Below, in pieces: positions 20,149 to 37,779 of a DNA stretch of 64,000 bases. Under the pieces are notes generated by a model. The model was not told the DNA's origin, made no database searches, and was given only the letters and a program-made list of their open reading frames with translations. Each line of letters begins with the position of its first letter. Positions within the stretch are counted from its first letter, which is position 1. The DNA comes from Candidatus Hecatella orcuttiae (lineage in GTDB: Archaea; Thermoproteota; Bathyarchaeia; Hecatellales; Hecatellaceae): the NCBI GenBank assembly GCA_002011035.2, contig MTLY02000002.1, forward strand, positions 64,001 to 128,000. Reading direction: 5' to 3'. Made by a program: the position numbers and the translations under genes.

Positions 20149-20157
20149 AGAGGCTTA

Positions 20158-20841: not shown

Positions 20842-21000
20842 CGGGCACTCCTCGGACGAGAAAACCGTCTACTATGAGGGAGATATTTCTCCATTTTAAG
20901 TTGAAAAATTATATTTAAAACCTACAGCCGACAGTTACGAACGCATTTCATGGTGTGGGGGCTCGGGAAGCATTTGGAAGCCAGCTTGATACTTAGCTTA

Positions 21001-21774
21001 TTAGCTTACTCTCCTCCCACCCCATTCCTGCCTGTAATGGCACTCATAGCAGTTTTCACCGAATCTTTCCGCCCATTCCTCATGGCAATTGATACACACA
21101 TCAACACGGGGTTTTATCTTCTCAAAGCCGCCTTCAGTGTGGCAAAGATCACAGTCGATTTTAGAGTGAGGCGTTTCTGTGTGGAGATACGTGATCACAT
21201 GACATCGGTCACATTCGGCGAAGTTTAAGTTGCCATATTCATCAGGCAAATGCCCTATAGGTGAACCCCAATCTTCCCGAGGATGGCATTTGTAACAATT
21301 GGTGTCCATCATGTATTCTGGAAGATCCTCATGGCAGTGTATGCAAACATCCACGGTAGGCACCTCGATTCCAGGTCCATGCATACCATGGCATTGTCTG
21401 CAGGCGATCTCCGAATGAGCCTTAACCTCGTGAAGACTGTTTCGGAGATGACATTCTTCGCAGATGGCTGATATCTGAGGATTGGTAAAGTTTATGAGAA
21501 CAGGAACCTCGTATATGCCTAGAACATATCTTCCTACCATGATCACCGACTGGGGTCCGCTTTCATGGCACAGATGACACTCGACGAAACTTTGTCCGTG
21601 AACTGATATCTCCCAGTCCTGAACAAAAGGCTCCATTATATGACATGCGCTGCAGTAGCGTGGATTTGAGATGATGCCGGTCCCTATCTGGTAAGTTAAA
21701 ACCGTAAAAGTGAGAAAGCTGAAAACTAGAATCATAACTAGGGCAGTGATCCCTATTTTCGCCACTCGACGCAA
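21001..21774 (-). CDS. Membrane-anchored decaheme c-type cytochrome, NapC/NrfH-like N-terminus
   Basis: N-terminal TM; 10 CxxCH; first site CSACHIM followed by W..S.H. Confidence 0.88.
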   Translation of the reverse strand: MRRVAKIGITALVMILVFSFLTFTVLTYQIGTGIISNPRYCSACHIMEPFVQDWEISVHGQSFVECHLCHESGPQSVIMVGRYVLGIYEVPVLINFTNPQISAICEECHLRNSLHEVKAHSEIACRQCHGMHGPGIEVPTVDVCIHCHEDLPEYMMDTNCYKCHPREDWGSPIGHLPDEYGNLNFAECDRCHVITYLHTETPHSKIDCDLCHTEGGFEKIKPRVDVCINCHEEWAERFGENCYECHYRQEWGGRRVS

Positions 21775-21787
21775 TTGAACCCCCCGG

Positions 21788-22495
21788 TTACAATTTCTTC
21801 AATACTGTTGTGCAACATCTATCTCCGTCGATAATGCAGTCTTCGAGTTTTACGTCATAGTTTCCAAGGCATCTACTAATGGATCGAAAATAGGCAGCGT
21901 GACCTTCGCAGAGGGTCTTGGGGCTGAGCTTCGAGATTTCGTAGAAGATGCAGTTGAAAATTTTTATCACCAAGTCCCCCTCAGGCGTTCTAGTTATCGA
22001 AGGATAACAACCCATTTTTTCCAGTTCGCTGAGCACATGAGTGCAGAATTTCTCCTCGTTCCATTGCTGAATTCGATGCTGAAGGCTAAGGTTTCTCATC
22101 ATGTTCTCCCCCATTTTTTCTCCAATCTCCCGGAGGAGAGTCGCTGCATATTTTTCACCTTTCTTATCAATAAGACTTTCCAGCAATAATTGAGCCAGCA
22201 GTTGGTACTGACGCTGGGGGAAACCTAGATTCATATATCTGTTTGCAATTTTATAATACTGTTTGGGTCTGCCTGGGCTGCCTCTTTCCTCCAAAAAGGA
22301 CTCTACTAAACCTGCGTTTTCCAAGATTCTCATATGGTGGCGGAGGGTTATGGTTTTGAGGTTAGTCTTTCTCGAAAGTTCATCCAAGTCTAAAGGTCCA
22401 CAAGTTACAAGAAGGTCTAATATAAATCTTCTAGGTTTGATGGAAAGAGCCTTATAGGCTTCTTCGTCTTTCAGGTTTGAATTTGTTGAGAACAA
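21788..22495 (-). CDS. ArsR-type wHTH regulator with Cys-containing C-terminal sensor domain
   Basis: TLRHHMRILENAGLV, GSPGRP..YY, P.RQYQLLA, NC..., LC, C..DGDRCC. Confidence 0.8.
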   Translation of the reverse strand: MFSTNSNLKDEEAYKALSIKPRRFILDLLVTCGPLDLDELSRKTNLKTITLRHHMRILENAGLVESFLEERGSPGRPKQYYKIANRYMNLGFPQRQYQLLAQLLLESLIDKKGEKYAATLLREIGEKMGENMMRNLSLQHRIQQWNEEKFCTHVLSELEKMGCYPSITRTPEGDLVIKIFNCIFYEISKLSPKTLCEGHAAYFRSISRCLGNYDVKLEDCIIDGDRCCTTVLKKL

Positions 22496-22755
22496 ATACT
22501 CACAACATATTCTATTGAAGCCTGCTTCTTTTATTTTTTTCTCTTTAATTATATATATGGATAATATAATATTTATTTAAATTACAAATGAAAGAAAAAT
22601 AATTATTAAGCGGAAATATCAAGTTCACCTCGAGCTTAACTCCCGTGCCTCAGAGGATACGGTAGGTTTAAGTTGTTTTCGAAGATAGCAATAGAATATA
22701 TCAACACATGAGTTGAGAACAAAATCTTTAGAGACTAAGGGAACAGTGTTTTCCA

Positions 22756-23475
22756 TTGAAAGAACACACACCAGTTGTTATCGAGCACCTCGCCAAGCGC
22801 TACGGCTTTAGATATGCGCTCCTAGATGTTACGTTGAGCGTGGGCCGGGGAGAAGTTTTTGGCCTCCTCGGTCCCAACGGCGCAGGCAAAAGCACACTTT
22901 TGAAAGTGCTTGCCACACTGGTGTCTCCATCCGGCGGCTCTGTACTAATAGACGGCCTCAGCTTGAAGGATAGGAAGGTGGAACTCCGGAGGAGGATAGG
23001 CTACCTAGGCCACGAGCCTCTTCTTTACAGGGACCTAACAGGTGAGGAGAATTTGAAGTTCTACTATAAGTTCTACCATTCTTCGCCTCCAGAGTACGTT
23101 CAGGAAAAATTGGATGAGGTATTTGAGCTTTTGAGGATAGGGGGCTGGCGGCATGAACCTGTCAGAAACCTTTCCAGAGGATTTAAGAAGAGGTTCGACT
23201 TTGCCAGAGCCATCATTCATGATCCTGAACTTCTGCTTTTCGACGAACCTTTTTCAGGCCTTGACATGGAAAGCCTAGAGGTCGCCCGTGAATTTGTGCG
23301 AAGCATGGAAGGGGAAAAGACTATCATCATCTCCACCCATAACATCGAAGAAGCCAAGGAGCTTTGCAACAAGGCAGCACTCCTAGCAAAAGGGCGACTT
23401 ATCCGCTTGTTGGAGGCCGGCGATATAGACGAGGTAAGCCTCAAAGACGCCTTTAAGGGAGGAGCCGCCCGTTGA
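22756..23475 (+). CDS. ccmA: Heme ABC exporter ATPase CcmA
   Basis: GPNGAGKST, GYLGHEPLLY.DLT.EENL, LLLFDEPF; within the ccm cluster. Confidence 0.88.
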   Translation: MKEHTPVVIEHLAKRYGFRYALLDVTLSVGRGEVFGLLGPNGAGKSTLLKVLATLVSPSGGSVLIDGLSLKDRKVELRRRIGYLGHEPLLYRDLTGEENLKFYYKFYHSSPPEYVQEKLDEVFELLRIGGWRHEPVRNLSRGFKKRFDFARAIIHDPELLLFDEPFSGLDMESLEVAREFVRSMEGEKTIIISTHNIEEAKELCNKAALLAKGRLIRLLEAGDIDEVSLKDAFKGGAAR

Positions 23476-24164
23476 CAAGCCAAACTCTCCATGAGTTAAA
23501 ATGCGCCATCTACGTTGCATCCAAGGATCTTCTGGCTGAGTTGAGGAGGAAGTATGAAGTTTTTTCCATGCTCACTTTTGCCCTGATCTCTATCATAATA
23601 TTCAACTTCGCCTTCGGGATTTTCTCTGCCGCAGTGCACCAAGCGGTTCCCGCCATAATATGGATAATAATTTTGTTCGCAGGAATGTTCGGTTTTTCCA
23701 CGGTGTTCACGCGGGAAAGCGATCAAGGCACGCTCGACGGCTTGAGAATGCTTCCCATCTCCTCCCAGTCCATATTCTTGGGGAAAGTGGTCTACGGCTT
23801 CCTTCTGATGGGAGTCATCGAGGTGATTTTTGTTCCTTTGAGTATGGTGCTTTACAGCTACACCTTCACTTCCAGTTTCCTATTAACAGGATTGGTTTTC
23901 GTCCTAGGAACGTTGGACCTCGCTGTTGTGGGAGCTTTGGTCTCGGGTTTGACGATGTATACGGAGTCAAGGGCTCTGCTGATTCCTCTGTTGATGTTTC
24001 CGCTGGTGCTGCCGGTAGTTATCCCCCTCGTCATTCTGACCCAGAAACTCATCCTTGGAGTAGAGTTCTATTCTGTGCTGCCTGAGCTGAGGATGGTGGC
24101 TCTCACTTTGGCGGCGCTGGCAGCCGCCGCTCTCCTGCTTTTCGACTATGTCCTCCAAGATTGA
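23472..24164 (+). CDS. ccmB: Heme exporter permease CcmB
   Basis: KDL.AE.R, F.RE.D.GTL.GL, IFLGK, L.PLL.FPL..P. Confidence 0.88.
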   Translation: MTSQTLHELKCAIYVASKDLLAELRRKYEVFSMLTFALISIIIFNFAFGIFSAAVHQAVPAIIWIIILFAGMFGFSTVFTRESDQGTLDGLRMLPISSQSIFLGKVVYGFLLMGVIEVIFVPLSMVLYSYTFTSSFLLTGLVFVLGTLDLAVVGALVSGLTMYTESRALLIPLLMFPLVLPVVIPLVILTQKLILGVEFYSVLPELRMVALTLAALAAAALLLFDYVLQD

Positions 24165-24204
24165 AGCTGAAAGTTTCCACTGGAGAGACAGTTGGCGAGA
24201 CGGT

Positions 24205-24339
24205 TTATTCCCCTTGCTCTTTCAGAGTGTGTAAGACCTTTCTGAGAGATGAAACTTTGCGGTCTAACCATAAGACATACAGGAAGATAACACCCCAGAA
24301 GATCATGGACATCGTCAGTAAGGTTTCTAAAAGCCCCAT
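24205..24339 (-). CDS. ccmD: CcmD-like small membrane protein (44 aa)
   Basis: MGLLETLLTMSMIFWGVIFLYVLWLDRKVSSLRK...; starts 2 nt after the ccmC stop; single TM plus charged tail. Confidence 0.65.
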   Translation of the reverse strand: MGLLETLLTMSMIFWGVIFLYVLWLDRKVSSLRKVLHTLKEQGE

Positions 24340-24341
24340 TT

Positions 24342-25037
24342 TCACACCTCCTTTCCATATTTTACGGCCTCTGTTCTCTCCTCCATCCGAAGCAAGTCTA
24401 GGGTGATCCGGAAAAGCAAAACGTAGATCAACGTGACCGCAGCGAGGGCCACCATCAATGTGGCAACCATCGACCCTGTTATGAGTAAGCCCGTTGGTTT
24501 TATGACCACGGGGTGAAGCGTAAACCAGAGATGAACCGATAGATAGCTTAATGGCACAGTTATGAAGGCTACGATCCCCAACACAGCCGAAAGCCTCGCC
24601 CGCTTCTCCCTGTCTTCCACGGCCAGCCGAAAGGAAAGGTAAGCAACATAGACCAGCCAGAGGATAAGAGTGGTCGTCTCCCGTGGGTCCCAGTGCCAGT
24701 AGACCCCCCAAGCTGAACCAGCCCATAGAGACCCAAGTATCAAGGCCAGCCCACAGAAGACAACCCCCAACCTAGCTGAGGCGTCGGCGCAGAGGTCCCA
24801 GCCGCTTCGCCCGGTGCGCAGAAACATGAGACTTCCAACAAACGTAACCCCGAAGGCTAGGTAAGAAACCCACGCTGCTGGAACGTGAAGATAGAAAACT
24901 CTATAGAGCTCCCCCAACGTAGCCTCTGGAGGTGCGTAAAAATATGTGAGATAAATAGATAAAGCATTGAAGATAAAAACTAGGGGAAGGAATCCGTAGC
25001 GCCACAGAGCTTGACGGCGTTCTGAAACCACAACCAC
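24342..25037 (-). CDS. ccmC: Heme exporter/chaperone loader CcmC
   Basis: YLHVPAAW, GSLWAGSAWGVYWHWDPRETT (WWD domain), TLHP. Confidence 0.93.
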   Translation of the reverse strand: MVVVSERRQALWRYGFLPLVFIFNALSIYLTYFYAPPEATLGELYRVFYLHVPAAWVSYLAFGVTFVGSLMFLRTGRSGWDLCADASARLGVVFCGLALILGSLWAGSAWGVYWHWDPRETTTLILWLVYVAYLSFRLAVEDREKRARLSAVLGIVAFITVPLSYLSVHLWFTLHPVVIKPTGLLITGSMVATLMVALAAVTLIYVLLFRITLDLLRMEERTEAVKYGKEV

Positions 25038-25039
25038 TT

Positions 25040-26275
25040 TTATCCACTCCTCTTCTTCTGAGAATTATCTTCCTTTCCTCTCTTCAGTTTATTCAATTTT
25101 TTCTGAGCCTCCGTCTTACGGCTCTCATATCTGCGTATAAGCTGGACGTATACTTCTGGGGAGATAACTCCTAGCCTATAGTCAGACTCCAATCTACGGA
25201 GAGTAGCCTCGGAAGCCTGTAGCTCTCCTTCCAGTTGCATGATAGTTGAAACAGCCGATTTTACTCCCCCCTTTTTCCTTAGCATATTCAGATAAAGGGC
25301 AGCCACGCCTATAATAGCGATGACTCCCGACATCCAGAGAACAGAGTTGGCGATAAATCGAAGCTGAGATAAACCTGAAACCTTGACGATTATCTGGGAG
25401 CCGGCTTCCATCTTAGAGCCTAAAAGTGCTTGGTATACCTTGCCGTTCAACGTAGTTTCACCAGCGTTCTCCAACCCCTCCGCTTCCACTTCCACGCCCG
25501 GCTTCTTCTCCACCAGCACGTGGACTAGTTGGGTGGGATAGACTAGCTGTTTGGTGAAGACGCGCTCAGAGCGTTGGAGAGGGAGCTCGTATTCCACCCA
25601 TAACCTGTACTGACTGCCGGGATAAAGAGGTCCCATGGGGTCGAAGGTTACGGAGTCTTCGGAAGGAAACAGACAACAGTCCATCACGGGAGAGGTGAAG
25701 TTGTAGCGATCTGGGGGAACGTTTAGTCGTAGAGTACTGTTGGCGAAGACCAGCTCGCCCACGTTTTGGTAGACGAGAAGCTCGTAGACTCCTAAACGTT
25801 TCTCAAGGGGAGTTAGCAGTATGTAGTGGACGAGCACCCCAATGTCTTCGTCGCTGGATGTAACTTCGTAGACTATAAAGTCAGCCTGCACTGGCTCTTG
25901 GCCGTCTAACTTCACCATCTGAAAGTAGGGAACACCTTGATAAACAACCTCGATAACGAAAGTTTTGTTTACTGGCAAGGTTTCGAATTTATATTCACCC
26001 TCCCTGCCGGTAACCGTATCCGCAACGGTGATGAACTCGTCTCCGCGCAACTCTTTGAGTGAAACCTTTAAACCGGGAAGCGGGCCTGCTGAAGATGTTA
26101 CTTTCCCGACGATTACGCCGCTTTCCTCAGCGCCTTTTGCAACCTTTATGCCACTAAGACCGACGGCCATGATGGAGACCAGAAAAATAACCACTAACAA
26201 CTTGCTTAACCTGTTTGATGAGGAAACCGATCCCCAGAGACAAAGAGATGCCACCAAATCGTTTGTGAGACTCAT
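25040..26275 (-). CDS. Membrane-anchored beta-sandwich (carboxypeptidase-regulatory-like) protein with a CcmI-like C-terminal coiled coil
   Basis: Signal/TM, T...GEYKF..LP, Y.GVPY, second TM, LRRLESDYRLG.IS.E.Y..L..RY; inside the ccm operon. Confidence 0.65.
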   Translation of the reverse strand: MSLTNDLVASLCLWGSVSSSNRLSKLLVVIFLVSIMAVGLSGIKVAKGAEESGVIVGKVTSSAGPLPGLKVSLKELRGDEFITVADTVTGREGEYKFETLPVNKTFVIEVVYQGVPYFQMVKLDGQEPVQADFIVYEVTSSDEDIGVLVHYILLTPLEKRLGVYELLVYQNVGELVFANSTLRLNVPPDRYNFTSPVMDCCLFPSEDSVTFDPMGPLYPGSQYRLWVEYELPLQRSERVFTKQLVYPTQLVHVLVEKKPGVEVEAEGLENAGETTLNGKVYQALLGSKMEAGSQIIVKVSGLSQLRFIANSVLWMSGVIAIIGVAALYLNMLRKKGGVKSAVSTIMQLEGELQASEATLRRLESDYRLGVISPEVYVQLIRRYESRKTEAQKKLNKLKRGKEDNSQKKRSG

Positions 26276-26775
26276 TTTTTCGCAACTCTTTCCCTAAACT
26301 TTTGGTATTCTTTCTCAAATATCTCATCGTACTTTGCCATGGCCGTCAGTAATTCCTCACTCTCATATTCTTCTTCCTCCAACTCCACATCGGAAGGTTT
26401 TCTATATGCTAAACGGTAAATTATGGCGGTTCCGCCGACAGCAGCTGCGATGGGAAGCACCCACAGCATTAGTTCTAAGCCGCTTTTCTGCGGGGTTGCC
26501 AGTATATTTTCCCCGTATATCATTTGAAGCTCGAAGATTATTTCCTCCTTCGTTTTCCCTTGACTTATCATCTGCTCTATCTGAGTACGCACCTTATAGG
26601 CGGTTTCACATTCACAGTCCGATAGAAGCATGGTACAGCCGCAGGGACACCATACACTGCGGGAAACCTCCTCCACTGTCGTTTTTACCTCTGAGGCTTG
26701 AACCGAGATCGGAAGCAACAGCAACCCGAATATGAAGACAAAGACTGCTATTTTTCTGGCGTTTTTCATCTTCAT
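26272..26775 (-). CDS. ccmH: Cytochrome c biogenesis protein CcmH/CycL
   Basis: CPCGC...C.C, GKTKEEII....YGENILATP, LWVLP; ATGA overlap with ccmF. Confidence 0.82.
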   Translation of the reverse strand: MKMKNARKIAVFVFIFGLLLLPISVQASEVKTTVEEVSRSVWCPCGCTMLLSDCECETAYKVRTQIEQMISQGKTKEEIIFELQMIYGENILATPQKSGLELMLWVLPIAAAVGGTAIIYRLAYRKPSDVELEEEEYESEELLTAMAKYDEIFEKEYQKFRERVAKK

Positions 26776-28739: not shown

Positions 28740-28751
28740 CCATCTACTAGC

Positions 28752-29141
28752 TTATTCCGAGGCCTCCGGAAGTTCTTCATATTTAGAAGGACACTTAACC
28801 AGCACTTTCTCAGCTTGGAGAACTGAATCTTGAAGGGTGCCGATCACCACAACTTCATTACCTTCTTGAAATCCTGAAGGATAAACTCCGAAATAGGTTA
28901 CCTCGATGGATGAGCGGTTGTCTGCAAGGATAAAAGTAAGAGTAGCTCCTACCCTCTCCACAGAGCCCTCCTTCACTATTCCTGTTACCTGAACCTGCCG
29001 CCCGTAATATTCGCTAGGCTTCTCCATCAGTTCAGAAACAGGGGTATAGGGTGTGATAGAACTTGTAAGCTGCTCATAAACTACGTAGCTACCTATTACC
29101 GCCAAGATAAGACAAAGCGCCACTATCCTCCGGGTCCTCAA
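28752..29141 (-). CDS. ccmE: Heme chaperone CcmE (CxxxY variant)
   Basis: N-terminal TM, OB fold, KCPSKY. Confidence 0.92.
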   Translation of the reverse strand: MRTRRIVALCLILAVIGSYVVYEQLTSSITPYTPVSELMEKPSEYYGRQVQVTGIVKEGSVERVGATLTFILADNRSSIEVTYFGVYPSGFQEGNEVVVIGTLQDSVLQAEKVLVKCPSKYEELPEASE

Positions 29142-29323
29142 GCTCGATACCCTACTTGTTTTAACATCGATATAATAGATATGAAAGTTCTTTTATAAAT
29201 ATTTAATAATCATATTTATTAAAATTTTTAATAATATTATTTATATATATATGTGCATAGAAAATTTTTTATCTTAATATTTAATAGTTATTAATTAAAT
29301 TAATTTAAAATCGAAGAAGAACC

Positions 29324-30415
29324 ATGCAACGCAAACTGAAAATCATTCAAATATCTACCGTATTCTTCATTCTTAACATATGCTTTTACCTTCTTTACAC
29401 CCTAGTCTTACGACCCTTCATGAACGCCCTTCCGATGGTGAGTAGAATCATTGCTTCAAACTTCCCCTTCTCAGCGAATCTTCCCTCAGCCTATTCACTT
29501 CAATTCTATGTGATAGCCTTCTACTTTTTCCTCATCACTGTTTTAGTACTGCTTTTCGCAGTGCATGTGCTTCTCGACACCGTGAAGAGGTGGAGGGAAG
29601 CCGAAAGTTTTCCCATAGAAACATCGAAAGCCAAGTTTGAGCGATTCTCCCTTAACCAGAGGCTTCAACACATCGTACTGATAGTGACCTTCACCATATG
29701 CGCTGTCACAGGCTTCGCTTTGAGATACTTCGACTCTTGGGGGGCCTTTGTGATTTACTTCCTAGGCGGACTTGAAGCGAGGCGGATAGTCCATATAGTC
29801 TCTGGCTTCACCATGGGCGGTCTAGCGATATACCACATGATCTATTACGGCCGCACCTTTTTCACCACGCACAAAAGGCGAGTTGAGATCATGTTTACCA
29901 AGAAAGATCTATCCAACTTAATAGCCAACATCAAATATCTCCTAAACTTAGCCAAAGAGAAGCCTAAATTTGGGCGATATAATTATATTCAAAAACTCGA
30001 TTATTGGGGTGTTGTATGGGGCATAGTGATTTTTGGTGCAAGCGGCATAGCCTTACTCTTTTTCAGGTCACCTTTTGGAGTGGGGATAGGGGCTCCTGAG
30101 CCTTATCTCCTCGTCGCCCTTCTGTTCCATGAAAGAGAAGCTGTTTTAGCCGTCTTAACTTTGCTGGTGCTCCATTTCTATTACTCCCACCTCAACGCTG
30201 ATGTTTTCCCCATGGATCGGGTGTGGATTACCGGAAGCGTGCCGGAAGAGATTATGCGCAGCGAGCATCCCTTAGAATTGGAGGGGATAAAAAAAGGTAA
30301 GGTAGAGCCGCCTCTTCCCCCTGTACCTTGGCAGTCCATATTTCTTACTTCCCTCATTCTGCTGTTCATCACCGTCATGATACTTTCATATTCGTATGCG
30401 CGGGGGTTGATATGA
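29324..30415 (+). CDS. Di-heme cytochrome b (FdnI/HydC/CbcL-type) quinone-interacting membrane protein
   Basis: RFS..QR.QH, H..SG, H, P.FGRYNY.QK.DYW, H..EA.LA...HFY, FPM...W.TG, EHPLE. Confidence 0.87.
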   Translation: MQRKLKIIQISTVFFILNICFYLLYTLVLRPFMNALPMVSRIIASNFPFSANLPSAYSLQFYVIAFYFFLITVLVLLFAVHVLLDTVKRWREAESFPIETSKAKFERFSLNQRLQHIVLIVTFTICAVTGFALRYFDSWGAFVIYFLGGLEARRIVHIVSGFTMGGLAIYHMIYYGRTFFTTHKRRVEIMFTKKDLSNLIANIKYLLNLAKEKPKFGRYNYIQKLDYWGVVWGIVIFGASGIALLFFRSPFGVGIGAPEPYLLVALLFHEREAVLAVLTLLVLHFYYSHLNADVFPMDRVWITGSVPEEIMRSEHPLELEGIKKGKVEPPLPPVPWQSIFLTSLILLFITVMILSYSYARGLI

Positions 30416-32112
30416 GAAATCTTAAGCATCTGACAGCAGGGCCAAAGATAAATAAGAGAGCGATGGCGGCTTTCTCGATCATTATTATTCTTTCTATCGC
30501 TTTTAACACAGCCTTCGCCTCAAAACCTTCTTTCCCCTCCCAATCTACCGCAGCTCCTCCCATGCCGGAAGACCATGAGGGACGTACCGTCTGTAAGGGC
30601 TGTCATGAAACGGGTGTAGCTGATGCTCCTCTTCTCCCCCCATCGCCTGATCACACAGTTTTCCCTGATGATTACGTGATGTGCAGTGGATGCCATGAAC
30701 TAGTTTTGTCGCCTACACCGTCCCCTACCATCGCAGTTACACCTTCACTTCCCCTGCCACCAGAAGAGTGTGGAGTATGCCACGAAGAGTACGAAGGATG
30801 GCAGCAGTCTATCCATGCTGAGAAAGGCGTCAACTGTCTTGTTTGCCATTCCGGCGTTGAAACCGTGCCTCACGAGGAAGTCGTAGTAGATCTGGCCGTG
30901 TGCAGTCAGTGCCATGGGGGAAGGTTTCAACTGGAAGTCATCAGCATCACTTGTAACTCATGTCACGATCCCCATAGTCAGACTTTGGAGGTTGAAGTCG
31001 CTAAGCTATGCAGTCGCTGCCATTCAGAGGAGTACCAGCGATGGAGTGACTCTGCTCACGGTTTGGCGGGAGTGGCCTGCGAGAAATGCCACCGTCATGC
31101 AGAGGTGGGGCACGTGCACAGGTTGGTAGAGGTCAGTTCTGTCCTTTGTGGTAGTTGTCATGTCGAGCAGTACCGGCTTGAGATAAAGCACGACATCAAC
31201 TGTGCTGACTGCCATGAACCTCACAGCCAAGACTTGAGAAAGAAGGTGCCGGAGTTATGCGATAGATGCCATGACGACATATATCGAGATTGGAATATGT
31301 CCCCTCACAAAGTAGAAGGAGTCTCATGCGACGTATGTCATCCTCATGCAGAAAGCGGCCATGTTCACAGGTGGATCAACGCCTCCTCTGCCGCTTGCGG
31401 ACAGTGCCATAAAACCTTTGAAGAATTAAGCGAATCGAAAATGGCTGTGTATGATATCACATGCACCAACTGCCATAACCCCCACTCCCAGGAAATTAGG
31501 ACCCCCACTGTTTCCACCCTCTGCGGGCGCTGTCACAATCAGACCACAAGTCCAGAATACTATTTCTGGAATGCCAGCGTCCATAAGGCTGTGGGAGCAA
31601 GTTGTGAGACATGCCACATGTACTCTGAAGGAGAGCGGTTCAGGCATAACTTTACTCAACCTCTCTTAGAAGAAGCATGTGAGCAGTGTCACGCGATCCT
31701 ACCTTCGGGAGAGTTACATGCCCTTCAGTACAGGACTGAGTATGAGATCAAGAAGGCTGAGGAGAAAATAAGGGCGGCTGAAGGAGTTATCGCCAAGGCC
31801 AAATCTGTCTTCAAAGTAAGTGAAAAAGACCCTCTAATGGTGAAAGCTGAAAGCATGCTGGCTGAGGCTGAACACATACTGGAAATGGTGAAGAATGAGA
31901 AAAGTCGAGGGTTCCATGCACCCATACTTACTCACATGCTTATATCCCAAGCCTTTAACTTGGGAGAGCAATCTCAGCGCATAGCTTTGGAGCTGGCGGG
32001 GAGTAGGTCTCTCAGTTGGGAGATATCTCTGCTGATTGCTTTAGGCATAATAGCAGTCATGGAGTTAGTAGTGTTCTCTTACAAAATTAGAAAGGCTTCT
32101 GGTAAAATTTGA
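30412..32112 (+). CDS. 17-heme c-type cytochrome with C-terminal membrane anchor
   Basis: Signal peptide, 17 CxxCH, SRGFHAP helical domain, C-terminal TM; ATGA overlap with the cytochrome b gene. Confidence 0.9.
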   Translation: MRNLKHLTAGPKINKRAMAAFSIIIILSIAFNTAFASKPSFPSQSTAAPPMPEDHEGRTVCKGCHETGVADAPLLPPSPDHTVFPDDYVMCSGCHELVLSPTPSPTIAVTPSLPLPPEECGVCHEEYEGWQQSIHAEKGVNCLVCHSGVETVPHEEVVVDLAVCSQCHGGRFQLEVISITCNSCHDPHSQTLEVEVAKLCSRCHSEEYQRWSDSAHGLAGVACEKCHRHAEVGHVHRLVEVSSVLCGSCHVEQYRLEIKHDINCADCHEPHSQDLRKKVPELCDRCHDDIYRDWNMSPHKVEGVSCDVCHPHAESGHVHRWINASSAACGQCHKTFEELSESKMAVYDITCTNCHNPHSQEIRTPTVSTLCGRCHNQTTSPEYYFWNASVHKAVGASCETCHMYSEGERFRHNFTQPLLEEACEQCHAILPSGELHALQYRTEYEIKKAEEKIRAAEGVIAKAKSVFKVSEKDPLMVKAESMLAEAEHILEMVKNEKSRGFHAPILTHMLISQAFNLGEQSQRIALELAGSRSLSWEISLLIALGIIAVMELVVFSYKIRKASGKI

Positions 32113-32238
32113 TCGAAGATTTTTTTTATATATATAATAATTTATAAATTTAAATTATTGTGCAAAAATTTATATATCTAATAATAGTAATAAAAGAAAC
32201 GTTAGAAACCCTGCCAAAAAAGGAAGGGGGTATATACG

Positions 32239-34149
32239 ATTAAAAATAGACATCTTATTTATTTAATGGCTATCACCATAACCATCCTAGCCTTCGGTTC
32301 CATCGCAGGAGCATTGACGATCCAAGCAAACATACAGGCTTCCCAAGAAACATACGCCGCAGAGATCCCAAGCTACGTCGGTCCAGAGACATGTAAAATA
32401 TGCCACCCCGCTCAGTATGAAGAATGGAAAGACACAGGCCATGCTAACATGATACTCACCGCACAGCAAGCGCAGGAGGAAGGTTTCCCCCTGCCCGAGG
32501 GTATATCTTGGGATGATGTGGCGTACACCTTAGGAGGCATTTGGAAGATACGCTACATAAACACAAGCGGTTACTTTATAACTTGGCATTATGAGAATGG
32601 AGTCAAAACACCTGGGAAAAACCAATATAATATCGCCACAGGCGAATGGGTCGACTACCACGCTGGCGAAGTTAAAAAGTATACTTGCGGAAACTGTCAC
32701 ACTACAGGCTATGATGTAGAGGCCGCGTCCCCAGAGGGTATGCCTGGCATCGTAGGCAACTGGCAGTTCCTCGGCATCACCTGTGAGTCTTGCCATGGGC
32801 CTGGAGGAGACCACATCACGGGGCCCACGCAGAACAAAATGGTCATCGATGTGAGTGCGGAGGTCTGCGGGCAGTGCCATGTTAGGGGTAAGGACATCAC
32901 TTACCAGCTTGGAGACCCCGAATCCTTCAGCTACACCCACGGTGAAAAGCCTCATAAACATCACCAGCAGTATCATGACTGGATTCAGAGTGAACACAGC
33001 GAATCTTTAGAGCATCTTGTAGCTTTGCCCTACGCACAGGATTACTGTTTGAGCTGTATGAGTGCAGATAAAATCCTGAACACCGATCTCATCACCTTGT
33101 TCAAGGCTCCTGAAGTAACCGTCGAAAATGCCGTGAACCCTGTTACCTGCGTCAACTGCCACAATCCCCACTCTTCCGACCTGAGAATAACGAGGCCTGC
33201 CGTCAAAGGATACCCCGCCGTGGGAGAGGTTGGGTCGACTGCTGATAAATTAACTGTCTGTACGCAGTGCCACACTGGTGGAGCCACGGTGGAGGAGAAG
33301 GATAAGGAGAGATGGCATCATACCACAGGGGAAATATTCACCGCCATAGGTAGCGTACACTATGCTTCCGGTGTTACATGCGTTGACTGCCACATGGCTC
33401 TTGACACCAAGACGGCCATTGCCTATGATCTACGCAACCATACCATGACGGTTCAATCCTATGGGACATACGATTATACATGTGGTCAAGCTATAGGCTG
33501 CCACAAGGAACAAGGCGCAGAATGGGCTGAACAGCGCATATTAGATGCCCAGACTCTGTTCAGCGAATCGCTGGAGAAGGCAGAGGCAGCCATATCTTCA
33601 GCCGAAACTACTATCATCACGGCTAATGAAACCGCAGGAATTGATATGGCCACCCTCAAAGAAGCGGAAGAACTACTGCTGAAAGCTAAAAGTAGGTTTG
33701 CCTACGCAGAGGCAGATGGCAGTGAAGGTTTCCATAACCCAACCTACACCCAGATGCTTTTGGCAGCAGCTCTGGACTATGCTGCCAAGGCTGAATTGAC
33801 CGCGTCTAAAGCTATAGCCGACGCCACCATCGCCACTTTGGCTCCTGCAGAGCAAGTTGAAACCTTGCGGGCTGAGGTTTCCCGCTTGCAAGACGAAATC
33901 TCCGACCTCCAAAAACAGAACAATGCCTTAAAGAGCCAAAATGAAGACCTCCGAAAGTTAAACAGCGACCTTGAGAATCAAGTCAGCAGTTTGCAGGCGC
34001 AGGTTAGCAGTCTTCAAGACCGTGTGGCCGAGTTAGAAGCAGCGGCCCCGCCGAGGGTAGGAATGCTTTACGTTTACCTCGCCATAGGCGTAGTGGTCGG
34101 TATTATCATAGGAGCCGCCGTGATCTTCGCTGTGAAGAGGGGCAAGTAG
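32239..34149 (+). CDS. Multiheme cytochrome of the NrfA/c552/HAO-related superfamily (7 CxxCH + CxxCM + Cx5CH) with coiled-coil stalk and C-terminal anchor
   Basis: YVGPETCKICH..QY.EW..TGH, ITCESCHGPG..H, HHQQY.DW..S.H, DGSEGFHNP; first ATG is 32266, possible ATT start at 32239. Confidence 0.88.
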   Translation: MKNRHLIYLMAITITILAFGSIAGALTIQANIQASQETYAAEIPSYVGPETCKICHPAQYEEWKDTGHANMILTAQQAQEEGFPLPEGISWDDVAYTLGGIWKIRYINTSGYFITWHYENGVKTPGKNQYNIATGEWVDYHAGEVKKYTCGNCHTTGYDVEAASPEGMPGIVGNWQFLGITCESCHGPGGDHITGPTQNKMVIDVSAEVCGQCHVRGKDITYQLGDPESFSYTHGEKPHKHHQQYHDWIQSEHSESLEHLVALPYAQDYCLSCMSADKILNTDLITLFKAPEVTVENAVNPVTCVNCHNPHSSDLRITRPAVKGYPAVGEVGSTADKLTVCTQCHTGGATVEEKDKERWHHTTGEIFTAIGSVHYASGVTCVDCHMALDTKTAIAYDLRNHTMTVQSYGTYDYTCGQAIGCHKEQGAEWAEQRILDAQTLFSESLEKAEAAISSAETTIITANETAGIDMATLKEAEELLLKAKSRFAYAEADGSEGFHNPTYTQMLLAAALDYAAKAELTASKAIADATIATLAPAEQVETLRAEVSRLQDEISDLQKQNNALKSQNEDLRKLNSDLENQVSSLQAQVSSLQDRVAELEAAAPPRVGMLYVYLAIGVVVGIIIGAAVIFAVKRGK

Positions 34150-34218
34150 AAGCGCCCCCCGTCCACATTTTTTGGGATCGGGATTCGTTTAGAAGTGTTT
34201 GCCATAAGGGAGGATGGT

Positions 34219-35544
34219 GTGAGCGGCTTGAGAATCTTTAACTTGAGGGCCACTTACAAGAAGGTTTCCATCCCTCTGCTGGAGAAGCTAACTTTCAAGA
34301 GCCCCCCGAAGGCTTTGAGGAGTTTACAGAATGCGGAAAACATCAGGGAATGCCTAATTCTGCAGACATGTAACAGGGTAGAAATCTTCGCAGTAACCTT
34401 AACCCAGGAAGACGAAGAGAGAGTGGCAGAGTGGTGGAGGAAAGAAACAGGTTTCAACTCAGAGAAATTTTACAGCCTTATCGAAGTGTCCCGTGACGTG
34501 GAAGCTGTGGGCCACCTTTTCCGGCTGGCTTCAGGCCTTGAGTCCATGGTAGTCGGGGAAGCTCAGATCCTCGGCCAGATCAGGAAGGCTTTCGAAGAGG
34601 CTAAAGCCTGCGGCACGGTAGGCCCTCTGCTCGAGAAAGTTTTCACCAAGGCGATCAAGACGGGGGGTCGAGTTCGCCTTGAAACAGACATCGGCAAGGG
34701 CGCTGCATCGGTGGGTTCGGTGGCCGTAGACTTGGCTGAGGAGGTCCTCGGTGGGCTGGAAGGGAGGAGAATCCTCATCCTAGGAGCTGGGGAAACCGGC
34801 ACATTGGTGGGGAAAGCTCTTGCAGCCAGACGGCAGGCCGCGGTCTTCGTGGCCAATCGCACATATCCCAGAGCCCTTAGGCTGGCTCGGATGCTGGGCG
34901 GCCGAGCTGTGTCCTTCAGTCAGCTGGGGAAATTTCTGGCTGAAGCCGACGTGGTGGTGGTCGCCACCTCAGCGCCCCACCCAGTGTTGAAGTTGAGCGA
35001 GGTGGGGAAGGCTTTGGAGGAAAGGGGAGGAAAGCCCATGCTCATCATTGACCTTTCCCAGCCTAGGAACGTGGACGCCGAGGTAGCCCGCCTTAGGGGG
35101 GTTCAACTCCACAACATCGACGACCTCCAAAAGCTGAGCCAGCTAAACCTTAAAATGCGCGCCGCAGAGGTGGAAAAGGTTGAAAAAATCGTGGAAAAAG
35201 AAGTAGGGCGGCTGGAGTTGATGTTGAAGAGGGAAACCGCGGAACCTGTTATCTCAGCCATGCTGCAGAGGGCCGAGAAGATCAGGAGGAAAGAAGTGGA
35301 GAGATTTCTCAGCATGCTGGGCCGGGTGGATGGAACTTTGCGGAAACTCATCGAAGATATGTCCTATGAACTCGTCGAAAGAATCTTCCACCATCCAATC
35401 CAAAACCTGAGAAAAGCCGCGGAAAAGGATCAAACCTCCCTAGTTCTGGCAGCCAGAAAGCTGTTTAACATCGAAGCTGAAAGGGAGCCCCAAGATTTTC
35501 CTGAGAGCTTGCAATATGGAATACCCATGAAAGAGGCATGCTAA
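34219..35544 (+). CDS. hemA: Glutamyl-tRNA reductase
   Basis: LQTCNRVE, HLFRLASGLESMVVGEAQILGQ, GAGETG, IDLSQPRNV. Confidence 0.95.
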   Translation: MSGLRIFNLRATYKKVSIPLLEKLTFKSPPKALRSLQNAENIRECLILQTCNRVEIFAVTLTQEDEERVAEWWRKETGFNSEKFYSLIEVSRDVEAVGHLFRLASGLESMVVGEAQILGQIRKAFEEAKACGTVGPLLEKVFTKAIKTGGRVRLETDIGKGAASVGSVAVDLAEEVLGGLEGRRILILGAGETGTLVGKALAARRQAAVFVANRTYPRALRLARMLGGRAVSFSQLGKFLAEADVVVVATSAPHPVLKLSEVGKALEERGGKPMLIIDLSQPRNVDAEVARLRGVQLHNIDDLQKLSQLNLKMRAAEVEKVEKIVEKEVGRLELMLKRETAEPVISAMLQRAEKIRRKEVERFLSMLGRVDGTLRKLIEDMSYELVERIFHHPIQNLRKAAEKDQTSLVLAARKLFNIEAEREPQDFPESLQYGIPMKEAC

Positions 35545-37743: not shown

Positions 37744-37779
37744 AAGCTGGAAGCTGCTGTGAAAAGCCGAAAACGATGT

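Follow-up and report, generated by a model that had tools for sequence, protein, structure and literature searches.

A gene block for multiheme cytochromes and cytochrome c maturation in a Bathyarchaeial genome

Layout, maturation genes and heme supply

The stretch of DNA analyzed here (the window; 64,000 nucleotides) belongs to a Bathyarchaeial genome of 1.75 Mb (G000). Sediment archaea of this type are commonly regarded as fermenters. A 14.5-kb block at positions 21001-35544 carries genes for the genome's only multiheme c-type cytochromes, MHC10, MHC17 and MHC9 (10, 17 and 7 CxxCH motifs), along with a PF01292 cytochrome b (CytB), ccmABCEFH, one conserved ccm-linked gene, an ArsR-type Cys-rich regulator and a second hemA gene (Table 1). 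The initial annotation had counted 34 canonical CxxCH motifs plus two atypical sites in these cytochromes, and the ORF translations bear this out. In a scan of all ORFs of at least 80 amino acids in the whole genome, these three alone have at least three CxxCH motifs; one ORF elsewhere, DnaJ, has two. Because no other ORF in the genome reaches three motifs, the clustering of the cytochromes is not due to chance. The sole ccmF and the sole PF01292 gene of the genome also lie in the block.

The genes appear to be arranged in four tightly packed transcription units: arsR-MHC10, ccmAB, ccmE-F-H-orf411-ccmC and cytB-MHC17-MHC9-hemA2. All ORFs are intact and closely packed, and ccm genes overlap or abut. 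The three spacers are indeed very AT-rich, as had been noted, when set against the GC content of the window (0.509), and an AT-rich repeat family, D1, is common to all of them.

Table 1. Features of the block, with positions in the window
Feature	Position	Strand	Evidence and remarks
MHC10, 257-aa decaheme c-type cytochrome, N-terminal membrane anchor	21001..21774	-	10 CxxCH
ArsR-type winged-helix regulator, Cys-rich C-terminal domain	21788..22495	-	HTH_5 29.5 bits (cut-off 22)
Divergent AT-rich intergenic region, arsR-MHC10 vs ccmAB	22496..22755	.	GC 0.296; presumed promoters
ccmA (ABC ATPase)	22756..23475	+	ABC_tran E 3.4e-31; 43% identity to ccmA of UBA233-type cluster
ccmB	23472..24164	+	PF03379 CcmB 95.7 bits; six hydrophobic segments; 4-nt overlap with ccmA
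ccmC	24342..25037	-	PF01578 120.4 bits; WGVYWHWDPRE motif in translation
411-aa membrane protein	25040..26275	-	between ccmH and ccmC; candidate Ccm accessory protein
ccmH	26272..26874	-	PF03918 CcmH 66.7 bits (cut-off 25)
ccmF, single copy in genome	26772..28739	-	CcmF_C 185.1 bits; Cytochrom_C_asm 134.3 bits
ccmE, Cys-type variant	28752..29141	-	PF03100 87.4 bits; C-P-S-K-Y replaces His motif
Divergent, extremely AT-rich intergenic region, ccmEFH-411-ccmC operon vs cytochrome operon	29142..29323	.	GC 0.159; presumed promoter
CytB, 363-aa membrane cytochrome b, FdnI/HybB (PF01292) family	29324..30415	+	50.1 bits (cut-off 30.1)
MHC17, 566-aa 17-heme cytochrome	30412..32112 (alternative start 30328)	+	17 CxxCH in translation
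AT-rich spacer 5' of MHC9	32113..32265	.	GC 0.196; possible internal promoter
MHC9, 627-aa OcwA-type nonaheme-pattern cytochrome	32266..34149	+	7 CxxCH plus two variant sites
hemA2, second glutamyl-tRNA reductase gene	34195..35544	+	GlutR_N, Shikimate_DH, GlutR_dimer

Eight ccm-type genes had been proposed; we recognize six, plus the conserved ccm-linked gene for the 411-aa membrane protein. An 81-aa ORF at 24161-24406 found no support. CcmF carries the GWGGYWAWDPVEN motif in its translation and is 45-49% identical over its full length to its counterparts in three other genomes (G063, G248 and G212). The likely start of ccmH is an internal ATG near 26775 that overlaps the end of ccmF, and its product is 32-39% identical to ORFs that follow ccmF in the same three genomes. 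The Cys-type ccmE is presumably of the 'variant System I' type, reportedly described by Allen et al. in 2006.

The 411-aa protein consists, in order, of an N-terminal hydrophobic segment (27-45), a CarboxypepD_reg-like beta domain (PF13620, 28.4 bits, below cut-off), a second segment (311-329) and a charged helical tail; it has no NCBIfam match. In G063 and G248, the gene immediately 5' of ccmF encodes a homologue (28% identity; E 9e-35 and 8e-43). In L051, a Chloroflexota locus, ccmF and ccmC flank a gene for a weak homologue.

The block had also been credited with its own heme supply. A hemA gene is present 45 nt downstream of MHC9, but it is a second copy, 71% identical to the hemA at C3:663617-664921, and the pathway itself is encoded on another contig. 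The order there is hemA-hemB-[429-aa ORF]-hemC-SUMT-hemD, adjoining ahbA, ahbB, two AhbC/D-like radical-SAM genes and one cysG-N-terminal-like gene. Matches for hemA, B, C, D, SUMT, AhbA and AhbB are above cut-offs; those for the last three genes are below. The host genome thus appears to hold a full siroheme-route heme pathway, with the AhbC/D-like steps assigned from sub-cut-off matches.

The three cytochromes and their partner genes

The N-terminus of MHC10 is hydrophobic, and the N-terminal part of the protein resembles the quinol dehydrogenases NrfH, NapC and TorC, with a weak match for TorC. MHC10 scores 33.2 bits over residues 13-129 against the NrfH model TIGR03153 (below the 134.2 cut-off) and E 3.6e-4 against the NrfH structure 2j7a_C, and it has no Pfam match. 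An exhaustive HMMER search of 1.84e9 representatives gave two non-self matches at E<=1e-10, neither of which reached E<=1e-30. One full-length but weak relative, a 12-heme protein of 24.6% identity, adjoins an MHC9-like gene in G103. The regulator gene precedes MHC10 on the same strand, with 13 nt between them. Its product, described earlier as a Cys-sensor regulator, is of the ArsR type and has eight Cys among its last 90 residues; sub-cut-off matches are to MetOD1 (20.7 bits) and SufR (TIGR02702, 32.6 bits). A homologue (35.7% identity) is found three genes away from an MHC9-like gene in G207.

The PF01292 match of CytB, which is above cut-off, fits the earlier label of a quinone-type cytochrome b, and the protein is presumed to be the entry point for quinol. 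It has about six hydrophobic segments, with His 116, 157, 171, 269, 284 and 289 in or near them, and its nearest versions (34-37% identity) are from Chloroflexota and Methanomassiliicoccales. The stop codon of cytB and the start codon of MHC17 overlap in the sequence ATGA. MHC17 is laid out as an N-terminal signal-like segment, three tetraheme repeats, an NrfA-like C-terminal module (three hemes plus helices) and a membrane anchor, with hydrophobic segments at 13-31 and 538-556. Pfam places Cytochrome_C7 in five stretches and Cytochrom_C552 at residues 408-551 (E 9e-20), and the C-terminal 150 residues match NrfA PDB chains (E 6e-12). The same type of module ends MHC9, to which MHC17 is 24% identical over 484 columns (E 2e-16). 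Among 5.8e9 proteins, the best non-self relative of MHC17 has 26% identity (E 1e-21).

In a natural fusion protein, P0213, a multiheme domain like that of MHC17 (32% identity over 199 aa) is combined with a cytochrome b of the CytB subfamily (29% identity over 251 aa, E 1e-18). In Geobacter, CbcL, a fusion of a b-type and a nine-heme cytochrome, and CbcBA have been shown genetically to be inner-membrane oxidoreductases for extracellular acceptors (10.1101/2021.04.15.440034). We count the gene overlap, the fusion and this precedent in favor of the electron route proposed below. As described for Geobacter sulfurreducens, CbcL and CbcBA likewise have a diheme-type cytochrome b paired or fused with a multiheme cytochrome (10.1101/2021.04.15.440034), whereas the partner here is a 17-heme protein anchored at its C-terminus, in an archaeal host that lacks an outer membrane.

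MHC9 is homologous over nearly its whole length to OcwA, the nonaheme outer-cell-wall cytochrome of Thermincola potens and its closest relative of solved structure, with nine heme sites in the same order. The two are about 25% identical and come from an archaeon and a Gram-positive bacterium, and the likeness is drawn from sequence (residues 32-519 against PDB 6I5B, 6i5b_A; E 3e-35) and from a low-confidence model (mean pLDDT 60), for which 6i5b is the best Foldseek match (E 9.8e-14; TM 0.44/0.54). The beta-sheet domain and C-terminal three-helix bundle described for OcwA (PMC6703420) are predicted for MHC9 as well. Helices in the model span 418-455, 461-484, 492-525, 528-593 and 599-626, and the predicted bundle would be followed by a helical stalk of 66 residues and then by a membrane anchor at the C-terminus, both of them additions relative to OcwA. 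The tail weakly matches the S-layer stalk protein SlaB (NF040788, E 1e-4), and its type recurs in other large ORFs of relatives.

Whereas OcwA has nine CxxCH motifs, the alignment places CLSCM (residues 261-265) at the heme 5 site of MHC9 and CX5CH (C-x5-CH; residues 406-413) at the heme 9 site. Heme 5 of OcwA is reported to superimpose on the catalytic heme of NrfA (PMC6703420). CxxCM at this position is conserved in nine Bathyarchaeial genomes, and the G207 protein has CLSCM, as does the host. MHC9 has nine orthologues (48-63% identity; 49% to the G129 protein), four of which have CxxCK at the variant site, the motif that marks the catalytic heme of NrfA. No example of a natural CxxCM heme site was found in the literature searched, and the CxxCM site of MHC9 is unusual and apparently undescribed. 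CLSCM and CX5CH are putative heme sites, as the host has a single CcmF and heme attachment in other systems is reported to depend on the His of CxxCH (PMC4158909). All orthologues retain a His pair (351-352), some 20 residues ahead of the following heme motif, which may resemble the distal His of NrfA.

A possible route for electrons

The observed gene content, gene order and homologies suggest that the block encodes a respiratory branch, complete in itself, of this archaeon's electron transport chain. CytB is predicted to lie in the membrane, MHC17 and MHC9 to start with a signal segment and to be anchored at the C-terminus, and MHC10 to be anchored at its N-terminus. The Ccm system I proteins would export heme and attach it outside the membrane, and the extra hemA gene, presumably co-regulated with the cytochromes with which it is in line, might raise tetrapyrrole supply for up to 36 heme sites per protein set. 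Quinone, made by a MenA-like prenyltransferase, would receive electrons from a complex I-like enzyme of 11 subunits, whose genes lie 18 kb upstream in a cluster in which Pfam recognizes NuoA, C, D, H, I and three antiporter-type subunits. Against the use of quinone, the menaquinone futalosine gene (PF02621) was not found in the host genome and the MenA-like match is below curated cut-offs. A heme o synthase gene is also present.

Reduced quinone would then be oxidized by the diheme-type CytB, and perhaps also by the NrfH-like MHC10. Electrons would enter MHC17, a 17-heme wire tethered by its C-terminal helix, and pass to MHC9, held about 10 nm off the membrane by its stalk according to the low-confidence model. 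Outside the cell, MHC9 might reduce humic quinones or minerals containing Fe(III) or Mn(IV), on the model of OcwA in Thermincola, with small N-oxides as a side or alternative activity. OcwA is described as the cell-surface terminal reductase of that organism, able to reduce iron oxides (PMC6703420, 10.1101/2022.02.24.481543).

A quinol-fed extracytoplasmic multiheme reductase chain is, in our judgment, quite probable. The full chain with an extracellular acceptor is more tentative, and we would put it slightly below an even chance. The initial annotation had proposed a complete quinol-to-surface conduit; all parts are present with the right predicted topology, but the step to the surface, across any S-layer, is an inference, and the family of the terminal protein also reduces nitrite and hydroxylamine (PMC6703420). 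As acceptors, extracellular Fe(III) or humics are slightly favored over nitrite or hydroxylamine. The N-oxide activity of OcwA, CxxCK in some orthologues and the NrfH-like MHC10 weigh against an extracellular acceptor. Metal reducers also usually carry dozens of multiheme cytochromes, and the host, with three, departs from that pattern.

The same genes could instead make up an Nrf-like N-oxide reductase system, a reading that we consider unlikely though worth weighing. MHC10 and/or CytB would oxidize quinol and MHC9 would be catalytic, reducing nitrite, hydroxylamine or NO in the pseudoperiplasm for respiration (DNRA) or detoxification, with MHC17 storing electrons or acting as an adaptor. MHC9, like MHC17, matches Cytochrom_C552 (E 1.2e-33), and its residues 352-530 match NrfA and octaheme nitrite reductase structures (E 4e-14 to 2e-8), but it falls far short of the curated NrfA models PRK11125 (58.6 bits; cut-off 595) and TIGR03152 (38.4 bits; cut-off 692.5). 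The variant motif sits at the catalytic position and the His pair is invariant, yet the host has CLSCM rather than CxxCK. The proximity of the MHC10-like and MHC9-like genes in G103 recalls nrfH/nrfA. Compared with NrfHA, the quinol-dependent ammonia-forming nitrite reductase known, for example, from Desulfovibrio (2J7A), MHC9 and MHC17 have the C-terminal heme/helix module of NrfA, and MHC10 starts like NrfH. However, NrfA and NrfH have five and four hemes, against nine and seventeen sites and ten sites here; all curated NrfA and NrfH models are far below cut-off; and MHC10 is not in the MHC9 operon. Nitrite turnover by OcwA in vitro, where hydroxylamine is also reduced, is reported as only 1 per minute (PMC6703420). 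A soluble substrate would also give no obvious need for a 17-heme partner or a 66-residue stalk.

Possible nitrate reduction bears on the same reading. Among the host's proteins is a type II enzyme of the DMSO-reductase family with a TAT signal, possibly a nitrate reductase, and narH plus nrfHA were announced in 2018 for another Bathyarchaeota MAG, BE326-BA-RLH (PMC6256629). The alpha subunit occurs in two of 401 class genomes (G000 and G063). The MHC9 profile matches 17 genomes, and G000 is the only one of them with this subunit, so that the enzyme and MHC9 are not generally coupled.

Multiheme chains are reversible in principle, and electrons might run inward. The donor to the stalked cytochrome would be Fe(II), a mineral, a surface acting like a cathode or a partner in syntrophy, and MHC17, which could buffer charge, would pass the electrons with CytB to the quinone pool and on to a heme-copper oxidase or the DMSO-reductase-family enzyme. 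Both sinks are possible, as the genome also has a COX1-type oxidase that is probably a quinol oxidase because its subunit II has no CuA ligands. We regard this direction as improbable; it has no specific support, the closest characterized relatives (OcwA, CbcL and CbcBA) work outward, and uphill transfer to quinone needs an energy input that nothing in the block provides.

Distribution and origin of the block

Similar gene neighborhoods in other lineages lend support to the outward, quinol-fed chain. A cytB homologue is found in 28 of 80 loci fetched by an MHC9 profile search of genome contigs. In the loci examined, MHC9-like, multiheme and cytB genes adjoin mostly in Anaerolineae/Chloroflexota, and in one Methanomassiliicoccales locus. 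ANME-2 archaea show a similar adjacency in Mco, where a VhtC-type cytochrome b neighbors a 7-11-heme cytochrome; oxidation of a membrane carrier for extracellular electron transfer has been proposed, and dedicated Ccm genes lie nearby (PMC9012536). That proposal uses methanophenazine and a VhtC relative, whereas CytB is nearer the Chloroflexota and Methanomassiliicoccales versions; the giant ANME-2 cytochromes carry S-layer domains (PMC9012536), whereas MHC9 is predicted to be stalked and is not fused to one.

Within Bathyarchaeia, clusters of ccm and OcwA/NrfA-like genes recur patchily. In some (G129/UBA233-type, G103, G207 and G230), ccmA, B, C, E and F adjoin a gene for a cytochrome of eight or nine sites that has a coiled-coil and is anchored at its C-terminus, but the cytB-MHC17 pair and hemA2 are absent. 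Among the other Bathyarchaeial clusters, those of the G063/G248 type alone have ccmH and the 411-aa gene. The block is not unique, but the cytB/MHC17 pair and MHC10 appear to have no close relatives. Its earlier description as the best candidate for an undescribed system holds in part: no characterized syntenic orthologous operon was found, but related clusters recur, an MHC9 orthologue is publicly annotated as 'ammonia-forming cytochrome c nitrite reductase' (relatives are also named nitrite reductase c552), and nrfHA had been announced. The accompanying view that c-type cytochrome respiration is poorly described in this lineage is fair in light of a 2015 survey, which reports c-type cytochromes as confined to a few archaeal orders (PMC4429474).

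The block might have arisen as an artefact of assembly or binning, or have been imported recently and do no work in this host; either seems very improbable to us. GC3 is below the genome mean in all 12 block genes but ccmB (z -0.3 to -1.7), but without extremes, the lowest gene being at the 6th percentile. CcmF, the MHC9 cytochrome domain and COX1 were found in none of 13 same-family genomes, yet the MHC9 tail type is common to other proteins of relatives, and a host that respires would be expected to have the heme pathway, complex I-like cluster and oxidase encoded outside the block. The intact, tightly packed genes lie in the interior of a 481-kb contig (genome 97% complete, three contigs). 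Chimerism at the borders was a concern; the left border shows no sign of it, being spanned without differences by a contig from an independent run (X5, 18500-22521) and also by X1 (18500-23604). The right junction (34541-35900), where there is a tRNA-like gene, is taken from the source assembly; in all four runs compared it is fragmented, with no single contig bridging it. No integrase or flanking direct repeat was seen around the block. The population is real, since the stretch is present in nine runs from eight studies labelled subsurface or marine metagenome. The block itself appears to be a mosaic, with a ccmF that is 48% identical to that of G063 and 26% to that of G129.

Composition and borders of the cytochrome island

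The Hecatella genome under study (G000; 1.75 Mb in three contigs, rated 97% complete) carries an island of 14 intact genes that are tightly packed into four units. In the first unit, 13 nt separate an ArsR-type regulator gene from the gene for the decaheme cytochrome MHC10 (257 aa), and in the second, ccmA and ccmB overlap by 4 nt. The genes of the third unit overlap or are at most 12 nt apart. In the fourth, the stop codon of cytB and the start codon of the gene for the 17-heme cytochrome MHC17 overlap as ATGA, a 153-nt spacer precedes the gene for the 627-aa cytochrome MHC9, and 45 nt lie between the latter and hemA. The GC fraction falls to 0.296 and 0.159 in the two divergent intergenic regions and to 0.196 in the MHC17/MHC9 spacer, against 0.509 for the window, and we infer that these stretches are promoter regions.

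The ORF translations of MHC10, MHC17 and MHC9 contain 10, 17 and 7 CxxCH motifs, respectively, and a whole-genome ORF scan found no ORF of at least 80 aa with more than two such motifs elsewhere in the genome. Both results bear out the proposal, made in the initial annotation, that this is a multiheme cytochrome island. The one ORF with two CxxCH motifs, to the left of the island, was rejected as a cytochrome because it encodes DnaJ.

Features of the window and of related loci (window positions unless a contig or locus is named)
Feature	Location	Strand	Remark
DnaJ	9063-10154		two CxxCH motifs
URO-D family protein	16621-17838	-	PF01208
Island	21001-35544		four units
MHC10	21001-21774	-	unit (i)
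ArsR-type regulator	21788-22495	-	unit (i)
ccmA-ccmB	22756-24164	+	unit (ii)
ccmE, ccmF, ccmH, 411-aa gene, ccmC	29141 down to 24342	-	unit (iii)
411-aa gene	25040-26275	-	unit (iii)
ccmH	26272-26874	-	unit (iii)
ccmE	28752-29141	-	unit (iii); Cys-type
cytB	29324-30415	+	unit (iv); PF01292
MHC17	30412-32112	+	unit (iv)
MHC9	32266-34149	+	unit (iv)
hemA	34195-35544	+	unit (iv)
tRNA-like gene	35871-35981	-	right of island
Class I LysRS	36097-37743		island flank
Complex I-like cluster	contig C2:36.5-46.7 kb		
Heme-copper oxidase subunit I	contig C2:54521-56587		locus L114
DMSO-reductase-family operon	contig C2:160979-168558		locus L223
411-aa family member	L225:7620-9275		Bathyarchaeial locus
411-aa family member	L226:7916-9586		Bathyarchaeial locus
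11-heme module	L228:13068-16305		Bathyarchaeial locus
11-heme module	L226:16646-19837		Bathyarchaeial locus

The island is flanked by the genes for TBP and class I LysRS. The stretch is present in nine sequencing runs from eight studies, and its left border is bridged in an independent sequencing run. On the right side, assembly breaks occur at 35185 and at 35871-35904, the latter within a tRNA-like gene. That the island is an artefact or an inert passenger nevertheless seems to us very improbable.

As read from the sequence, the tRNA-like gene has a CCA end, a GCG anticodon loop (Arg) and an apparent insertion of about 29 nt after the start of the D-arm. Its 3′ part scores 28.1 bits with the Rfam tRNA model, against a gathering score of 29, and appeared only at an E-value threshold. 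In window positions 19000-38000, no tRNA was found by ARAGORN and Rfam returned nothing at the gathering score. The 3′ half of this gene has matches of 32-64 nt to five other places in the genome, and the assemblies of all four runs compared branch there.

Cytochrome c maturation and heme supply

CcmA, CcmB, CcmC, CcmE and CcmF, as well as CcmH, all score above their Pfam cut-offs, and WWD motifs can be read in the translations of CcmC and CcmF (WGVYWHWDP and GWGGYWAWDP). Thus, of the eight ccm-type genes initially reported, six are recognised as such, but the remainder reduces to a single ccm-linked gene of unknown family. CcmD, CcmG and CcmI were not recognised within the island. CcmE is the Cys-type variant, in which a CPSKY motif carries Cys in place of the heme-binding His, and it coexists here with ccmH. 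In archaea, the 'variant System I' (Allen et al., 2006) reportedly lacks CcmH. A 2015 survey records CcmH in only one archaeon (PMC4429474).

The ccm-linked gene encodes a protein of 411 aa, whose homologues, 28% identical (E 9e-35 and 8e-43), lie directly upstream of ccmF in two other Bathyarchaeial genomes, G063 and G248. We infer that this protein is a candidate Ccm accessory protein. The family consists of membrane proteins that carry a CarboxypepD_reg-like domain; in three Bathyarchaeial genomes its genes always lie next to ccmF/ccmH, and a weak member occurs in one Chloroflexota locus. A search of Pfam and NCBIfam found no named family for these proteins.

The island hemA is the second of two copies, which are 71% identical; the first lies on contig C3 and belongs to the cluster hemA-hemB-[429-aa ORF]-hemC-SUMT-hemD. 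That cluster adjoins ahbA, ahbB, two radical-SAM genes and a cysG-N-terminal-like gene. HemA, B, C and D, SUMT, AhbA and AhbB score above their cut-offs, and the AhbC-/AhbD-like radical-SAM genes score below. The heme supply that had been ascribed to the island is therefore upheld only in part: the island supplies an extra first-step enzyme, presumably cotranscribed with the cytochromes, but the pathway itself resides on C3. A URO-D family protein (197.6 bits) is encoded 3 kb to the left of the island. Because this family also includes methyltransferases, the protein need not belong to heme synthesis.

A predicted electron path and its variant heme sites

The cytochrome b of the island, CytB, scores above the PF01292 cut-off and has about six hydrophobic segments with six His. 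Its gene is paired with that of MHC17 in the manner of bc-type systems, in which a membrane diheme-type cytochrome b is encoded together with a multiheme c-type cytochrome or fused to it. The same pairing logic is described in an account of Geobacter CbcL/CbcBA (10.1101/2021.04.15.440034) and in the ANME-2 Mco proposal (PMC9012536). Of 80 loci retrieved with the MHC9 profile, 28 also contain a cytB homologue, and in the Chloroflexota loci examined, cytB stands side by side with an MHC9-like gene and a further multiheme gene. Furthermore, in one database protein (P0213) the CytB subfamily is fused to an MHC17-like domain.

The N-terminus of MHC17 is signal-like and is followed by two hemes, three tetraheme repeats and an NrfA-like C-terminal module (three hemes plus helices), with a membrane anchor directly thereafter and no long stalk. 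With MHC9 it shares 24% identity (E 2e-16). Among 5.8 billion proteins there was no close relative of MHC17: identities over short stretches did not exceed 37%, and no relative scored better than E 1e-21. MHC10 carries an N-terminal anchor and resembles NrfH or TorC at its start. The curated NrfH model TIGR03153 gave 33.2 bits against a cut-off of 134.2, covering residues 13-129 only, and an identification as NrfH was rejected on this ground. The NrfH/NapC/NirT family is tetraheme, whereas MHC10 has ten hemes and its likeness does not extend beyond the N-terminal part. In an exhaustive HMMER search, MHC10 had only two non-self hits at E≤1e-10 among 1.84 billion representatives, and none at E≤1e-30.

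Among proteins of solved structure, MHC9 is best matched by OcwA (NrfA/c554/MccA superfamily), with homology to the PDB sequence 6i5b_A in two stretches (residues 32-228 and 228-519; E 3e-35). Foldseek likewise ranks 6I5B, 'Outer Cell Wall Cytochrome OcwA', first (E 9.8e-14), followed by the S-layer undecaheme OmhA, MccA, octaheme nitrite reductases and NrfA; since the AlphaFold2 model is of low confidence (mean pLDDT 60), this ranking serves only as agreement with the sequence search. According to its published description (PMC6703420), OcwA is a nonaheme terminal reductase on the Thermincola cell surface. Two of its hemes, 2 and 5, are high-spin and have an open distal site. When hemes 5-9 are superimposed on the core of NrfA, heme 5 falls where NrfA has its catalytic heme. 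OcwA is also able to reduce hydroxylamine and nitrite, the latter with a kcat of 1 per minute. All nine sites of OcwA align in the same order with nine putative heme sites of MHC9, but two of the latter are non-canonical: CLSCM aligns with CLKCH of OcwA (heme 5), and CX5CH with the last site.

Toward its C-terminus, MHC9 is predicted to form a three-helix bundle (418-455, 461-484 and 492-525; pLDDT 82-94), and Pfam Cytochrom_C552 matches residues 352-558. Past the NrfA-like bundle, residues 528-593 are modelled as a single continuous helix of 66 residues, which at 0.15 nm per residue would make a stalk of about 10 nm, and a hydrophobic helix is predicted at the C-terminus (599-626). Together with a signal-like N-terminus, the putative stalk and anchor are the predicted localisation features of the protein. 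In 40 relatives, MHC9 matches are confined to the tail and lie within other large ORFs, and the tail has a weak likeness to the S-layer stalk protein SlaB (E 1e-4, below the cut-off). Given these tail matches, the heme domain seems to be mounted on a lineage-typical surface anchor. Perhaps MHC9 (345-528) and MHC17 (360-535) dock through their NrfA-like C-terminal modules, although this is a guess.

The anatomy of the island fits a quinol-fed chain. As predicted from sequence, electrons would enter at CytB, and perhaps also at MHC10, and would pass to MHC17 near the membrane, then to MHC9 on its stalk and finally to an acceptor. Because of the OcwA homology, the 17-heme wire and the stalk, we lean tentatively, at somewhat short of even chances, toward an extracellular acceptor. 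Reduction of nitrite or hydroxylamine by the chain is rather unlikely, but has several points in its favor: the NrfA-like active-site position, orthologues with CxxCK at that place, the NrfH-like start of MHC10 and the small number of cytochromes. Against it, MHC9 falls far below the curated NrfA models (58.6 bits against 595 for NF008339 and 38.4 against 692.5 for TIGR03152) and has CLSCM in place of the catalytic CxxCK of NrfA. Because both tests fail, we rejected the assignment of MHC9 as NrfA, and it should not be filed under that name. Inward electron uptake through the same components appears improbable.

At the heme 5 site, five of the nine close orthologues of MHC9 (48-63% identity) have CxxCH and the other four (P0003-P0006) have CxxCK, whereas G000 has CxxCM. 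CX5CH is found in nine of the ten proteins formed by MHC9 and these orthologues, with CxxCH in P0010 instead. A shorter subfamily (460-540 aa, eight CxxCH, coiled-coil plus anchor, 29-37% identical to MHC9) occurs in eight other genomes of the class (G103, G207, G230, G099, G251, G203, G272 and G233). Each of them has C-x-x-C-M at the corresponding alignment position, as C-x-H-C-M in seven and as CLSCM in G207. In more distant relatives (P0011, P0013, P0016 and P0018), the heme 5 segment is missing altogether. A tree of 21 proteins, rooted only at its midpoint, separates long and short groups with 100/100 support, and MHC9 of G000 belongs to the long one, together with forms that have His or Lys. 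Because G000 thus groups apart from the short CxxCM proteins, Met at this site would either be ancestral or have arisen more than once.

Our search of the literature on 'CXXCM' and heme found no natural CxxCM heme site, the sole example being an artificial variant of mitochondrial cytochrome c, and no literature on CX5CH in cytochromes was found. For the mitochondrial-type system, the report on that variant states that the synthase does not attach heme once the motif His is gone (PMC4158909). The ccmF gene is single-copy in G000. A conserved CxxCM at the catalytic-heme position bears on whether Ccm attaches heme without the motif His and on what a Met-ligated reactive heme c does. It is conceivable, though we consider it unlikely as a whole, that Bathyarchaeia possess a class of OcwA-type cytochromes, stalked and anchored in the membrane, in which Cys-x-x-Cys-Met holds the reactive heme. 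Their maturation would fall to an archaeal Ccm variant that includes the 411-aa protein as an accessory protein not recognised before. In G000, three proteins with 36 hemes in all would form a conduit for respiring extracellular acceptors, with such a cytochrome at its outer end. If this is true, Cys-x-x-Cys-Met would be a type of heme c attachment and ligation not known from nature.

Distribution, origin and respiratory setting

The closest named orthologue of MHC9 is P0010, from 'Candidatus Bathyarchaeia archaeon', and among 185,579 species genomes the sole close locus is that of 'Candidatus Bathyarchaeota archaeon UBA233' (L009; 48% identity), with the next best at 32%. Both results agree with the assignment of G000 to Bathyarchaeia. 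A profile search of metagenome contigs gave no close orthologue among the matches listed (best 30% identity). Within the class, the MHC9 profile matched 17 of 401 genomes, with a full orthologue only in the UBA233-type genome G129, shorter or other cytochromes in ten and the tail only in five. CcmF_C occurs in 35 of the 401 (28 over the cut-off), concentrated in two families, and homologues of cytB in four. In the 13 genomes of G000's own family, neither CcmF_C nor COX1 was found, and hemA matched in two, one of them weakly. Clusters of ccm with OcwA/NrfA-like genes recur in G129, G103, G207 and G230, next to a 12-heme MHC10-like gene in G103 and an ArsR-like gene in G207.

On identity comparisons, the G000 island is a mosaic. 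Its ccmF, ccmH and 411-aa gene resemble those of G063 and G248 (48%, 32-36% and 28% identity, respectively), and MHC9 resembles that of G129 (49%), whose ccmF is just 26% identical to the island copy. Identities of the island genes to other-family genomes equal or exceed those of three aminoacyl-tRNA synthetases, for which G000 shows 26-27% (LysRS), 34-41% (IleRS) and 45-50% (ArgRS) to other families, compared with 62%, 61% and 52% to the same-family genome G002. This comparison, which fits transfer or loss, hints at an exchange of island genes within the class. Recent import from bacteria was rejected because the ccm genes and MHC9 are closest to those of other Bathyarchaeia; any transfer would therefore have been within the class. 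GC3 of the island genes is mildly low (z -0.3 to -1.7). The hallmarks of a mobile genomic island (integrase, flanking repeats and tRNA target) were not seen: there is no integrase ORF among the named island genes, no flanking direct repeat was found, and the end of the tRNA-like gene has no copy at the left border. The low identity of the flanking LysRS was observed with three other Bathyarchaeial families, and there may be two LysRS lineages within the class.

Elsewhere, G000 encodes a complex I-like cluster, in which no NuoEFG-type genes were seen, and a heme-copper oxidase subunit I that is a divergent COX1 (212 bits). Subunit II (153 aa, SoxA-like) is without Cys and hence has no CuA. The enzyme is predicted to reduce oxygen or NO, and it stands in a class regarded as strictly anaerobic. 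A heme o synthase gene is present, a MenA-like prenyltransferase hit is below the cut-off, and PF02621 (futalosine route) was not detected in this genome. A type II DMSO-reductase-family operon, adjoining cdhA, encodes an alpha subunit with a TAT signal (1154 aa), a beta subunit and a chaperone. A 133-aa cupredoxin (CuA-type C-x3-C-x3-H-x2-M) and a 486-aa NapH-like membrane protein replace the heme b gamma subunit. A general link between the island and this nitrate-reductase-like enzyme was rejected because its alpha subunit occurs in only two of the 401 class genomes.

The cytochrome b/multiheme chain, the OcwA-like terminal protein and the Ccm genes are all of known kinds. What appears to be new, within the reach of these searches, is their combination in Bathyarchaeia, together with the predicted stalked architecture of MHC9, the two orphan proteins with 17 and 10 hemes, the 411-aa gene linked to ccm and the conserved CxxCM and CX5CH sites. 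In the literature examined on multiheme proteins, EET, nrfA and c-type cytochromes, no analysis of such a cluster in Bathyarchaea was found. Bathyarchaeia are among the most abundant archaea of anoxic sediments and the subsurface and are mostly modelled as fermenters or acetogens. The sole cultivated strain is without cytochromes, quinones and terminal reductases (PMC10477458), and 'nrfHA' was announced in one sentence for one Bathyarchaeota MAG (PMC6256629). One near-complete genome of the class now combines a cytochrome b/multiheme chain and its maturation genes with a complex I-like cluster, a heme-copper oxidase and a DMSO-reductase-family enzyme, and this gene set suggests that some Bathyarchaeia may respire. 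If so, their role in iron, nitrogen and carbon turnover would be budgeted differently. With 14 genes and only three cytochromes, the compact island is a tractable unit for heterologous expression.

Lastly, G230 and G248 each have an 11-heme cytochrome gene near the ccm cluster, with two conserved genes (273/292 aa and 426/421 aa) after it, and this set forms a distinct Bathyarchaeial multiheme module.
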